Shown here: piece by piece, positions 12,705 to 15,095 of the stretch | Layout of the letters: every line of letters begins with the position of its first letter | How positions within the stretch are numbered: the stretch's first letter is position 1 | From: Promethearchaeia archaeon | GTDB taxonomy: Archaea; Asgardarchaeota; Lokiarchaeia; Sigyniarchaeales; SOKP01 | Assembly (NCBI GenBank): GCA_046497275.1 | Contig: JAWOFX010000179.1 | Location: forward strand, 1 to 17,795 | Direction: 5' to 3' | DNA: 17,795 nucleotides | Notes under the pieces: generated by a model | Databases searched by the model: none | Told to the model about the DNA's origin: nothing | Seen by the model: the letters and a program-made list of their open reading frames with translations, nothing else | Made by a program: the position numbers and the translations under genes

Positions 12705-14576
12705 ATGATTCCAAAACAAATGAGAGAGTTTTTATGGGAACACCTTCCCATCAGTGCTATTGAAAATCGGTTAGTCAAAGAACAAGGCAAATGTTATTTA
12801 GAGTTTGAAAGTAAAGATGAACATCTTCTTTCCCATATCGGGATAATTCGAGATAAATTAGGGCCTAATCTAGTTGTTTGCATGTGGGATGAAGAGTCAG
12901 AAATGGAAATTGGAGGTTATCTGATAGTTGATAATATCTCAATGGGAACACCTTCTATGGGGGGAATTAGAATGTTACCCGATCTGGTCCCCTCTGATAT
13001 TTATAATTTAGCAAGAGGAATGACATTAAAAAATTCTGCTGCAAACTTGGCATATGGAGGAGGTAAAGCAGGTATAGTCGCAAATAGAGAAATCTCTCCT
13101 CAAAAGCATAAAGAAATTATAAAGGGGTTTGCCCGATTAATTAAAAAATACCAGCATTTATATGTCCCAGGTCCTGATGTGGGAACAAATGATAAAGATA
13201 TGAAAACTATAGCGATAGAAAATGGCATAGATAGTACAGTATCAAAAACAGCAGATATGGGGGGAAATAGAATAGACGAATTAGGAGCCGCGGGAGGAGG
13301 AGTAGTAATCGCCCTCCAAACCCTTTTAGAAATCATGCCTCGATTAAGAGTATTGCCTCAATTCTCGAACCTTGAAATTCCCTCACAAGAGAATTTAGAT
13401 ATTATATTACAAGGATTTGGGGCTGTAGGTGCTCATGCAACACGCATTTTGAAAGAGAGAATACCTAAAGCGAAAGTTATCGGAATAAGTGATATTGAAG
13501 GATATTTACACAATAAAGATGGATTACCTGTCGAAGAATTATTTGATTTATGGACAGAAAAAACATTGGTGACAACAGAATATTTTAAATCTCATCTTAT
13601 TGATAAGGGTTATAAATTTCCTACTAAATTTTCAACAAACCCAGATAATTTATTACGAGAAGATGCTTTTTGTATGGTCCCAGCAGCGCCCGTATTCAAT
13701 TATCTTGGAGTAAGAAAATCAGAAAACTGTTCTATGACTGTGGAAAATATGGGAAAATGGCAATTAATTGTTGAAGGTGCTAACACCTATTCCCCAGATC
13801 CTAATAAAAAGGCTGGTAGAACTCGGATGGAACAGATTGTTTATCGTGAAAATGGTGTGATGATTGCTAATGATTATTTAGTAAACTCGGGGGGAGTTAT
13901 ATTCGCTGCTCAAGAACATATTATAAAAACACCCGATGAGCTACAAATACCAGAAGAGATGTTAGGGAATGAAGAGGCAGTTAATGATTGGTTAAATGAA
14001 CATGCCGAAGAATTCAAACTTTTATCCAAAAAACGTTTAGAAGCTGGAAGAGACGCGAGAGAAGGAGTAATCAGGCATAATATGATAGAATTAGTTGATA
14101 TGTTGACAGCTAACCAGGAACTTTTGCCGACTCCCGCAGCAGAAAGAATAAGTCTGAAACGTCTTGCCAAGAGTGAGCGTGAGAAAACTGCTGTGGACAT
14201 TATGGAAGACATTTCCATAATTGATATAGATAGCTCTATTCATGAAGCTGCATCCATGATAATAAAAGGTCCCAGTAATATGGTCGCTGTTCTCTCTGAT
14301 AAAAAATTGGTTGGTGTCATTACAGCATGGGATATAACTAAATCCATCGCAGATCGTAAATTTACATCAAAACTTGAGGAAATTATGACTAAAGATGTCA
14401 TTAGTGCCGCACCTAATCATGATCTTTTGTTGATAATTAGCAGATTAGAACAATATCAAATATCTGCAATGCCTGTTGTTGATAATTCCCAAGTTCTCGG
14501 TTATGTAAGTTCCGATCTAATAACTCAGCGGTATGTAGCCCGATTTATGCAAGATCAGGAATTTTTAAGATTATAA
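12705..14576 (+). CDS. Glu/Leu/Phe/Val-family amino-acid dehydrogenase fused to a C-terminal CBS pair, 623 aa
   Basis: MGGIRM, MTLK, YGGGK, PGPDVGT, GFGAVG Rossmann motif, EGAN and NSGGV. Two CBS repeats run from ~aa 495 (LVGVITAWD; ISAMPVVD). Confidence 0.9.
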   Translation: MIPKQMREFLWEHLPISAIENRLVKEQGKCYLEFESKDEHLLSHIGIIRDKLGPNLVVCMWDEESEMEIGGYLIVDNISMGTPSMGGIRMLPDLVPSDIYNLARGMTLKNSAANLAYGGGKAGIVANREISPQKHKEIIKGFARLIKKYQHLYVPGPDVGTNDKDMKTIAIENGIDSTVSKTADMGGNRIDELGAAGGGVVIALQTLLEIMPRLRVLPQFSNLEIPSQENLDIILQGFGAVGAHATRILKERIPKAKVIGISDIEGYLHNKDGLPVEELFDLWTEKTLVTTEYFKSHLIDKGYKFPTKFSTNPDNLLREDAFCMVPAAPVFNYLGVRKSENCSMTVENMGKWQLIVEGANTYSPDPNKKAGRTRMEQIVYRENGVMIANDYLVNSGGVIFAAQEHIIKTPDELQIPEEMLGNEEAVNDWLNEHAEEFKLLSKKRLEAGRDAREGVIRHNMIELVDMLTANQELLPTPAAERISLKRLAKSEREKTAVDIMEDISIIDIDSSIHEAASMIIKGPSNMVAVLSDKKLVGVITAWDITKSIADRKFTSKLEEIMTKDVISAAPNHDLLLIISRLEQYQISAMPVVDNSQVLGYVSSDLITQRYVARFMQDQEFLRL

Positions 14577-14593
14577 TTTTTTAATCTTTTTTT
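14577..14593 (+). terminator. T-rich tract after the dehydrogenase-CBS gene
   Basis: TTTTTTAATCTTTTTTT follows the TAA stop immediately. Confidence 0.4.
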
Positions 14594-14789
14594 AATGATC
14601 AATACCATAAAATAAGTTATTGATGCTTAAAGCACGATAATTCTAATTTTTTAAATTCTTAAAAATCTTTAGCACTCTTAGGAATTCCAATATATCAATT
14701 TAAGGAAAGAAAATAGATAATATTCGACTTAATTACTCTAAATATAAATGTAAAATTATAAAGCTTTTTTACTCATATTTAAGGAGAGG

Positions 14790-15095
14790 CTACATTAGTT
14801 CAATCTCGACTAGGACCGACTCGGGAATTTGAATCTTCATGATTAAATGCATGGACTTTTCGTTTGCTATTACCTCGAAGAGTCTTTTGTGGATCCGCAT
14901 CTCGAATTTAGCCCATGTAGCAGTTCCCTGACCCGAAGGAGATTTCCTGGTAGGGACTTCCAATCGTTTCGTCGGTAAAGGAATCGGTCCGTACTTCTTG
15001 ATGCCTTGTGTTTTACACACCGTTTCAATTTGCTCGCACACAGATTTAAGCGCTTCTAGGTTTATGGATGATAGTCGAATTCTCGCTTTTTGCAC
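14790..15095 (-). CDS. rpsJ: 30S ribosomal protein uS10 (archaeal type), 101 aa
   Basis: QKARIRLSS, GPIPLPTKRL, RKSP..G..TW..FEMRIHKRL and IQIPESVLVEIEL. GTG start with GGTG 7 nt upstream. Confidence 0.97.
   Translation of the reverse strand: MQKARIRLSSINLEALKSVCEQIETVCKTQGIKKYGPIPLPTKRLEVPTRKSPSGQGTATWAKFEMRIHKRLFEVIANEKSMHLIMKIQIPESVLVEIELM

Follow-up and report, generated by a model that had tools for sequence, protein, structure and literature searches.

A conserved MJ0100-like CBS pair, predicted to sense a ligand, on a non-glutamate ELFV amino-acid dehydrogenase of Asgard archaea and bacteria

The window analysed here, the whole stretch of 17,795 nucleotides from a Promethearchaeia archaeon, encodes on its forward strand (12705..14576; ORF list, translation and Pfam) a 623-residue amino-acid dehydrogenase of the ELFV family that carries a CBS pair at its C-terminus and is referred to as P0001. 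Judged from its sequence, the protein is a conserved, non-glutamate member of the ELFV family, and its residues 495-623 are a genuine CBS pair (Bateman module) and a predicted ligand sensor. The nearest known relative of this pair is the SAM/MTA module of MJ0100, so the P0001 pair probably senses a metabolite of that kind, and a SAM/MTA-type ligand is our best guess, held at even chances. CBS pairs are common regulators, and a CBS-controlled amino-acid dehydrogenase is not described in searchable papers. No paper describing a dehydrogenase-CBS fusion was found in the searchable literature either, in line with the initial annotation of this DNA, which knew of no characterised example.

The protein is ordered as ELFV dehydrogenase core, helical linker and CBS pair, with all features on the forward strand, and its MIPK start is conserved across all aligned homologues. 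The core comprises an ELFV_dehydrog_N domain (residues 79-170, 12939..13214; Pfam E 7e-18) and the NAD(P)-binding ELFV_dehydrog domain (residues 224-405, 13374..13919; Pfam E 4e-17), followed by the core-to-CBS linker (residues 406-494, 13920..14186), which is kept in all family members at a mean identity of about 55-60% to homologues. Positions 14187-14576 of the window correspond to residues 495-623 and the stop codon. Pfam (PF00571) finds two CBS stretches here with a whole-protein E of 2.2e-14, the pair matches 438 CBS chains of known structure at E <= 0.001, and the AlphaFold2 model of the pair (pLDDT 88) contains the expected beta-alpha-beta-beta-alpha elements. CBS motif 1 (residues 495-553, 14187..14363) is modelled with beta1 at 504-507, alpha1 at 512-521, beta2 at 526-531, beta3 at 534-540 and alpha2 at 541-549, and CBS motif 2 (residues 556-612, 14370..14540; best Pfam stretch 558-603) with alpha1 at 574-584, beta2 at 588-593, beta3 at 596-602 and a long C-terminal helix from 603. 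A T-rich stretch read directly 3' of the TAA stop (14577..14597) is likely an archaeal terminator.

Both Pfam domains that define the ELFV dehydrogenases (PF02812 and PF00208) are present with their characteristic residues. The N-terminal domain, aligned to 1v9l, holds TPSMGGIR, the alpha-carboxylate lysine K109, the catalytic K121 in YGGGKAG, and G156-P-D158 with the catalytic Asp; its key residues are 91-100% conserved among 81 family members, and K121, D158 and K109 are found in all of them (100%). The NAD(P)-binding domain carries QGFGAVG, with the Rossmann motif G237-F-G-A-V-G242, and NSGGVIFA. The residues that hold the gamma-carboxylate in glutamate dehydrogenase, Lys89 and Ser380 in Clostridium symbiosum numbering, are replaced by Met85 (within TPSMGGIR) and Ala401, at 91-100% across the family, and the NCBIfam glutamate dehydrogenase equivalogs score 40-80 bits against cut-offs of 536-750. 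The side-chain pocket reads M85/G156/A401, versus K89/A163/S380 in the C. symbiosum enzyme. The database name "glutamate dehydrogenase" is contradicted by these active-site residues, and Asgard reconstructions that count P0001 as a glutamate dehydrogenase may consequently be wrong.

A survey of the fusion, as the initial annotation had proposed, placed it in a single Asgard family and, among bacteria, in Desulfobacterota, Chloroflexota and others (55-64% identity), and every member of the dehydrogenase family seen carries the CBS pair. Asgard, Chloroflexota and Desulfobacterota members of the family keep 55-70% identity, and conservation of this order suggests that its role is an important one. 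Apparent fusions of CBS pairs to Na_sulph_symp, SRAP and Cpn60 fragments (P0128, P0135 and P0153) look like truncated or chimeric gene calls and were not counted.

The pair had initially been labelled MJ0100-type, and the analysis supports a pair of that kind, albeit in a clade of its own. The MJ0100 CBS pair is the top solved match by sequence (HMMER against the PDB, E 2.2e-15, about 41 of 100 aligned residues identical, well beyond chance) and by fold, the predicted structure superposing on 3kpc, 3kpb and 3kpd with an rmsd of 1.4-1.5 Å, compared with 2.8 Å for the next chain. The profile search and tree that had been suggested as a check point the same way: scored per pair, the family profile gives MJ0100 98 bits versus 62 for the next match, a margin of 36 bits, and the nearest paralogous CBS pair in the same genome is that of L-ASST. 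A tree was built from the 120 usable rows among the 150 best matches in 1.84 billion representative proteins. It groups the ELFV-linked pairs in one clade (support 99), sister (support 89) to the clade with all DUF39 (L-ASST) pairs and the MetX pair, and not inside it; the 72 other pairs fall outside both. As these rows are the best matches to the query, the nearness is partly built in. The MetX identity of the protein concerned, P0165, was confirmed. L-ASST (DUF39) and MetX are methionine-pathway enzymes. Within this sub-lineage SAM/MTA binding has, to our knowledge, been measured only for MJ0100, and we know of no ligand measurement for the MetX pair. An ESM Atlas structure search placed all CBS pairs at a TM of about 0.8 and so does not discriminate among them; the corresponding feature search returned generic CBS clusters only (0.87), a lead at most.

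The resemblance to MJ0100 is concentrated around one predicted site. The strings first quoted from the translation, LVGVITAWDITKSIA, LEEIMTKDVISA, QYQISAMPVVD and GYVSSDLIT, are all present in it, and those cited for MJ0100 (klvgiitswdiakala, ieeimtrnvita and kynisgvpvvd) match the PDB chain by HMMER. Where the ribose-binding motif G-h-h-(T/S)-x-x-(D/N) is expected in each repeat, the first has G537..T540..D543 and the second G599..S602..D604-L605. The former is the canonical ribose-binding motif G537-V-I-T540-A-W542-D543 (14313..14333), as it had been read at the outset; it follows the same pattern as GIITSWD of MJ0100, and its G, T, W and D do not vary among the 81 members (100%). The second element, LEEIMTKDVISA (residues 557-568, 14373..14408), spans the linker and beta1 of CBS2 and is near-identical to MJ0100 IEEIMTRNVITA, with M561, T562 and V565 conserved at 82-100%; the third, ISAMPVVD (residues 586-593, 14460..14483), is beta2 of CBS2, with I-S-A-M-P-V-V at 88-100% (81 members each). 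Following the general CBS architecture, LEEIMTKDVISA walls the CBS1-motif site, the sites being placed here by the layout of human CBS (PMC4276868) and not by MJ0100's own ligand contacts. Resemblance to MJ0100 is greatest in the three segments that wall this single site, where conservation is 88-100% between Asgard members and those as distant as Chloroflexota; the ligand-contact motif G-h-h-T-x-W-D, like the strands that partner it, is better conserved than the rest of the CBS pair (mean identity 46-56%). The predicted CBS1-motif site (GVITAWD, LEEIMTKDVISA and ISAMPVVD) is intact, nearly invariant and almost identical to that of MJ0100.

The predicted CBS2-motif site is degenerate. Its non-canonical motif G599-Y-V-S602-S-D604-L605 (14499..14519) has the Asp one residue before the canonical position, where Leu605 stands instead, so that the shifted Asp noted in the initial annotation proves to be family-wide. 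D604 is found at 94-100% and L605 at 93-94% in the family, and since D604-L605 occurs in 93-100% of the 81 members the early Asp is not a quirk of one sequence. Position 605 is Asp in 54% of pairs in the L-ASST/MetX clade and in 73% of the remaining CBS pairs, and human CBS needs the equivalent Asp538 in order to bind AdoMet at that site (PMC4276868). The signature T-x-W-D in CBS1 with I-S-A/G-x-P-V-V in CBS2 is present in P0001. Trp542, the sole Trp of the P0001 pair, occurs in 84% of the ELFV clade and 77% of the L-ASST/MetX clade, against Thr, Arg or Lys elsewhere, and position 588 is Ala in 88% and 77% of the two clades, respectively, but Arg in 47% of the others. Common to both clades and rare among the 72 other pairs, W542 and A588 are derived residues that the two share.

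The MJ0100 CBS pair binds SAM and MTA (titles of 3kpb-3kpd), and L-ASST is treated as SAM-regulated (PMC13381585, PMC4045070, PMC12068725). We propose that residues 495-623 would act as a built-in allosteric sensor of the non-glutamate dehydrogenase, the pair belonging, on this placement, to the same CBS sub-lineage as those on L-ASST (MJ0100/DUF39) and MetX. An intact MJ0100-like site together with a degenerate second one makes an uncharged or zwitterionic 5'-thioadenosyl metabolite (SAM, MTA or SAH) the likeliest ligand. The adenosyl ligand would sit in the intact site, between GVITAWD and residues 557-568 and 586-593; its binding would displace the CBS pair against the catalytic core, and this shift would adjust how amino acid and 2-oxoacid are interconverted. 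We infer the ligand and, if there is one, the allosteric effect with its sign, and the reading as a whole could equally well stand or fall. If the pair does bind SAM or MTA, the dehydrogenase would be the third enzyme type to carry this sub-lineage, after L-ASST and MetX, and SAM-type feedback would reach beyond methionine synthesis.

A generic sensor of energy charge, responding to AMP, ADP or ATP as in IMPDH, AMPK-gamma, MJ1225 or CBS-pyrophosphatase and tying amino-acid oxidation to the energy state, is unlikely but deserves serious weight. Adenine nucleotides are the ligands of most characterised CBS pairs, and the solved matches include chains of MJ1225, AcuB and IMPDH. D543 and T540, which bind ribose, are retained together with the basic K546 and K563, and retention of these two lysines, common to CBS pairs at large, leaves room for nucleotide ligands. 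However, nucleotide-sensing CBS pairs have basic side chains placed for the phosphates, and the positions that are often basic are non-basic here (Ala or Asp at 541, Trp542 and Ala588). Per-pair scores to nucleotide binders also reach at most 62 bits, compared with 98 for MJ0100, and the enzymes that carry the nearest clade belong to the methionine pathway.

The only conserved gene context of the fusion is bacterial and consists of panB and a TIM-barrel gene, here called c16. The same-strand order panB, c16, ELFV-CBS dehydrogenase occurs in 11 of 31 bacterial loci (Chloroflexota, Desulfobacterota and UASB270), flanked by CoaE, by a 3-hydroxyisobutyrate-dehydrogenase-like reductase or by aldo-keto reductases. 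The c16 product matched nothing by sequence in Pfam, NCBIfam or the PDB, and nothing in the ESM Atlas. Its model is confident (pLDDT 89), Foldseek returned only weak class II aldolase matches (TM 0.34), and VIA-align ranked TIM barrels with little between them (Z 11-12.5); on this model it is clearly a TIM-barrel fold of no known family. Within one Asgard family, c16 and the dehydrogenase have the same genus pattern. Neither panB nor CoaE, in the bacterial loci, shows an evident connection with SAM, which counts against a 5'-thioadenosyl sensor.

These operons suggest a link to 2-oxoacid or pantoate metabolism instead of a methionine switch. The enzyme might supply or aminate a branched or hydroxymethylated 2-oxoacid in a pantoate/CoA route, for example by turning valine into 2-oxoisovalerate for PanB, with the CBS pair reporting a route-relevant adenosyl metabolite. 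In one complete Anaerolineales genome the sole panB is the one within the panB-c16-dehydrogenase arrangement, panB-c16 pairs recur also where the dehydrogenase sits elsewhere, and Asgard c16 pairs with an aminotransferase or a DHDPS-Fae fusion. Against this, neither the window nor the Asgard loci show the panB/c16 link, c16 occurs in seven other Asgard families without the dehydrogenase and so is not its obligate partner, and we know of no reason for pantoate synthesis to be under SAM/MTA control; the account is an improbable one. In a more elaborate version, the dehydrogenase would carry out the amination or deamination in an undescribed route that also comprises a C1-adding 2-oxoacid enzyme and c16, its flux set by SAM/MTA through the MJ0100-like sensor so as to link methyl/C1 status to pantoate/CoA or hydroxy-amino-acid synthesis; this version seems doubtful indeed. 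The C1-adding enzyme of such a route would be PanB in bacteria and possibly the DHDPS-Fae fusion in Asgard archaea without PanB.

The initial annotation had raised a possible SAM-gated switch of methionine catabolism. On that reading the enzyme would be a methionine dehydrogenase, and SAM or MTA would turn on the deamination of methionine only when methionine and SAM are in excess. The MJ0100-like CBS pair is consistent with this, and so is the replacement of K89/A163/S380 by M85/G156/A401: the K89L/A163G/S380A pattern engineered in the C. symbiosum enzyme is one that has been read as a methionine/norleucine dehydrogenase signature. However, the pocket fits other uncharged side chains equally, CBS2 is without its canonical Asp, and no methionine-degradation genes adjoin the gene in the window, in the other Asgard loci or in the bacterial loci, where the context is panB and the TIM-barrel gene. 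The proposal lacks direct support and is decidedly unlikely. A purely structural role for the pair, in oligomer assembly or stability and with no small molecule bound, is the least probable case, as the G-h-h-T-x-W-D motif and the strands that partner it keep 88-100% conservation between domains of life, above the rest of the pair, even though blocked sites exist in some CBS pairs, such as S1 of human CBS (PMC4276868), and the second P0001 site is degenerate.

Compared with known dehydrogenases, P0001 shares its ELFV fold, catalytic Lys and Asp, and non-polar side-chain pocket with the leucine, valine and phenylalanine dehydrogenases and with the K89L/A163G/S380A variant of C. symbiosum glutamate dehydrogenase. 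Unlike all of these it has a CBS pair, and it differs further in an additional helical linker, some 90 residues long, and in low Pfam scores (63-65 bits), which mark a separate ELFV subfamily.

Among CBS-bearing enzymes, the closest counterpart is MJ0100, the L-aspartate semialdehyde sulfurtransferase (DUF39/HcyBio) of Methanocaldococcus jannaschii (3KPB, 3KPC, 3KPD), which likewise has a single C-terminal CBS pair on an enzyme and shares the motifs G-[VI]-I-T-x-W-D-I-x-K, EEIMT[KR]xVI[ST]A and Y-x-I-S-x-x-P-V-V-D. The catalytic partner differs, being DUF39 in MJ0100 and the ELFV dehydrogenase in P0001. So does beta2 of CBS1 (N-H-L-P-I-V-D versus N-M-V-A-V-L-S), and P0001 has S-S-D-L in CBS2 in place of T-S-E-D, by which the canonical Asp is lost. 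MetX-CBS proteins (homoserine O-acetyltransferase, for example P0165 of a Methanobacteriota cluster) carry a pair of the same sub-lineage, also fused C-terminally to a metabolic enzyme, but on a catalytic domain different from the ELFV domain. In human cystathionine beta-synthase a C-terminal Bateman module controls the catalytic core through an adenosyl ligand whose ribose is bound by G-h-h-T-x-x-D (PMC4276868). This protein is too dissimilar to appear among the solved-structure sequence matches of the P0001 pair, and its AdoMet site S2 uses the CBS2 motif, whereas the intact motif of P0001 is that of CBS1.

The gene at 12705..14576 (+) of the window encodes a member of a widely conserved family of amino-acid dehydrogenases with putative CBS regulation. 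In a window of about 31-35% G+C, the ORF list and translation give a protein of 623 residues whose MIPK N-terminal start is kept in homologues, with a TAA stop codon followed by runs of T. Pfam places ELFV_dehydrog_N at residues 79-170, ELFV_dehydrog at 224-405 and two CBS stretches in the protein; positions 14187-14576 encode residues 495-623 and the stop codon. Each of the 120 top-ranked homologues from a 5.8-billion-protein collection has the three-domain architecture, the CBS pair is present in every family member seen, and a scan of species-representative genomes gives at least 562 loci. A literature search over about 8.4 million texts returned no paper on a dehydrogenase-CBS fusion, in keeping with the initial annotation, which knew of no characterised one.

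Within the phylum, 32 of 201 sampled genomes carry the gene, all in one GTDB family (4 of 59 genera); the NCBI labels of these carriers (Loki-, Thor-, Hod- and Hermodarchaeota), which are labels of the MAGs, disagree with this single family. Among bacteria the gene occurs, at 55-64% identity, in Desulfobacterales, Desulfarculaceae, Anaerolineae, Entotheonella and bacterium UASB270, among others. When 81 full-length members are placed in a tree rooted on the most divergent one, a root that is not secure, the Asgard sequences group in a single clade with support 100 among bacterial branches. This placement is consistent with a single transfer from bacteria to the Asgard family.

The catalytic residues K121 and D158 are retained in the dehydrogenase, as is K109. 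Met85, Gly156 and Ala401 stand where glutamate dehydrogenase has Lys89, Ala163 and Ser380, and Met85 and Ala401 are kept at 91-100% across the family. Because of these pocket substitutions, and because the protein scores far under the cut-offs of the NCBIfam GDH models, the database name "glutamate dehydrogenase" is unlikely to be correct, and the substrate is probably an uncharged amino acid or 2-oxoacid.

In the window the dehydrogenase is neighboured by genes for a DUF3604 protein, a CitMHS transporter, ribosomal protein S10 and a membrane protein. The S10 gene (14790-15095, -) lies alone between the dehydrogenase and the divergent membrane-protein gene, with no translation-factor or ribosomal-protein gene adjoining it in the window. 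Other Asgard loci place RibD_C, an amidohydrolase, a pterin-binding DUF4346 protein or DUF1464 beside the dehydrogenase. A same-strand order panB, c16 (a protein of about 420 residues and no family), dehydrogenase is found in 11 of 31 bacterial loci from at least three phyla, flanked by CoaE, a 3-hydroxyisobutyrate-dehydrogenase-like reductase or aldo-keto reductases, and the only panB of one complete Anaerolineales genome sits in this arrangement, which is absent from the window itself. Three bacterial operons around the dehydrogenase (L066:1674-9966, L089:1240-9442 and L081:3223-7860) between them carry panB, dephospho-CoA kinase CoaE, a 3-hydroxyisobutyrate-dehydrogenase-like reductase and aldo-keto reductases, along with an aldehyde dehydrogenase and an Lrp/AsnC regulator, a pantoate/CoA theme. 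The initial annotation had proposed that an MJ0100-type CBS pair makes the dehydrogenase a SAM-gated methionine catabolic switch; an MJ0100-like classification of the CBS pair is supported, but the gene context suggests 2-oxoacid/C1 chemistry centred on pantoate rather than methionine degradation, and such a switch is one possibility among several and an improbable one.

No match to the c16 protein (for example L060:4544-5803, +) turned up in Pfam, NCBIfam, the PDB sequences or the Atlas. The confident model of c16 predicts a helical domain at the N-terminus and a TIM barrel, and structure comparison found no telling relative. Identity between Asgard and bacterial copies is 61-78%, with 61% for the copy in the archaeon's own genome (contig C44, 122360-123637, -; L096:6361-7638, -). 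It is not an obligate partner of the dehydrogenase. Pairs of panB and c16 also recur where the dehydrogenase is elsewhere. In bacteria c16 follows panB; in Asgard genomes it precedes either an aminotransferase (class I/II, in other Asgard families) or a fusion of a DHDPS-family aldolase (PF00701) to the formaldehyde-activating enzyme Fae (PF08714). In the own genome this 494-residue fusion (contig C44, L096:4854-6338, -) has c16 directly upstream across a 20-nt gap. No panB/PanB match was found in that genome (98.9% complete), where the fusion might replace PanB.

Residues 485-623 gave 2839 matches (E <= 0.001) among 1.84 billion representative proteins, and re-scoring per pair revealed a gap between scores of at least 53 bits, from CBS pairs on ELFV dehydrogenases, DUF39 proteins, one MetX (P0165; NCBIfam, 518 bits) and short proteins, and scores of at most 46 bits, from multi-CBS proteins. 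Three short proteins (P0128, P0135 and P0153) in which the CBS pair seems to be joined to a piece of a sulfate symporter, an SRAP peptidase or a chaperonin look like chimeric or truncated metagenome gene calls, not true architectures. The CBS-pair tree, built on 120 usable rows, unites the ELFV-linked pairs in a single clade (SH-aLRT 99). Its sister (support 89) takes in every one of the seven DUF39 pairs together with the MetX pair and stand-alone pairs; the remaining 72 lie across the root. Since the rows are the best matches to the query and few forks are resolved over 120 columns, "MJ0100-type" is a fair description only as a sub-lineage label, with the ELFV pairs placed as the sister group of the L-ASST clade and not as members.

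Likeness to MJ0100 is supported by sequence, profile and predicted fold. The MJ0100 CBS pair (3kpb/3kpc/3kpd) is the best match among all PDB sequences (E 2.2e-15), with about 41 of 100 aligned residues identical by hand count. The family profile gives MJ0100 98 bits per single CBS pair, MJ1225 62 bits and two others 54-57 bits, the higher totals of some entries being sums over several repeats. An AlphaFold2 model of residues 485-623 (22 family sequences, mean pLDDT 88) predicts two beta-alpha-beta-beta-alpha motifs with a long helix at the C-terminus. With this model Foldseek ranks the three MJ0100 entries on top, with TM by target of 0.88-0.90 and an rmsd of 1.4-1.5 Å, compared with 2.8 Å for the chain ranked next. 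In the own genome, whose homologues bear Promethearchaeota names, the CBS pair of the L-ASST (DUF39/HcyBio plus CBS) is the closest paralogue, at 34% identity. Just upstream of that L-ASST gene, and divergent from it, lies a gene for a 185-residue HTH and CBS-pair protein (contig C118, L001:748-1305, -), which may regulate it.

All CBS motifs quoted in the initial annotation are found in the translated protein, and the MJ0100 strings it gave match the deposited chain exactly. Repeat 1 is canonical (G537-V-I-T540-A-W-D543), and in repeat 2 (G599-Y-V-S-S-D604-L605) the Asp is, as had been noticed, shifted, standing one residue ahead of its canonical position. The shift is family-wide (D604 94-100%, L605 93-94%; n=81), while Asp occupies position 605 in 54% of the L-ASST/MetX clade and 73% of other CBS pairs. 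The second site looks degenerate, and four of its positions differ from the L-ASST clade: Leu for Asp at 605, Ile/Met for His at 526, Ala for Pro at 528 and Ser for Asp at 531.

The AdoMet site of human CBS is lined by the pre-CBS1 linker, a CBS1 strand and the CBS2 motif G-V-V-T-A-I-D, whose ribose-binding Asp538 is essential (PMC4276868). By analogy with this layout, the CBS1 motif (537-543) and residues 557-568 and 586-593 of the dehydrogenase would form one site. Trp542 and Ala588 are common to the ELFV and L-ASST/MetX clades, other pairs having mostly Thr/Arg/Lys at 542 and Arg at 588, which would fit a phosphate-free ligand. The prediction goes no finer than one site for SAM, MTA or a close analogue, and among candidate ligands a SAM/MTA-type molecule is the likeliest, with about an even chance of being right. 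Conservation in the three segments of this predicted site is 88-100% among archaeal and bacterial members, where the whole CBS pair averages 46-56% identity, and these segments are exactly the three that are near-identical to MJ0100.
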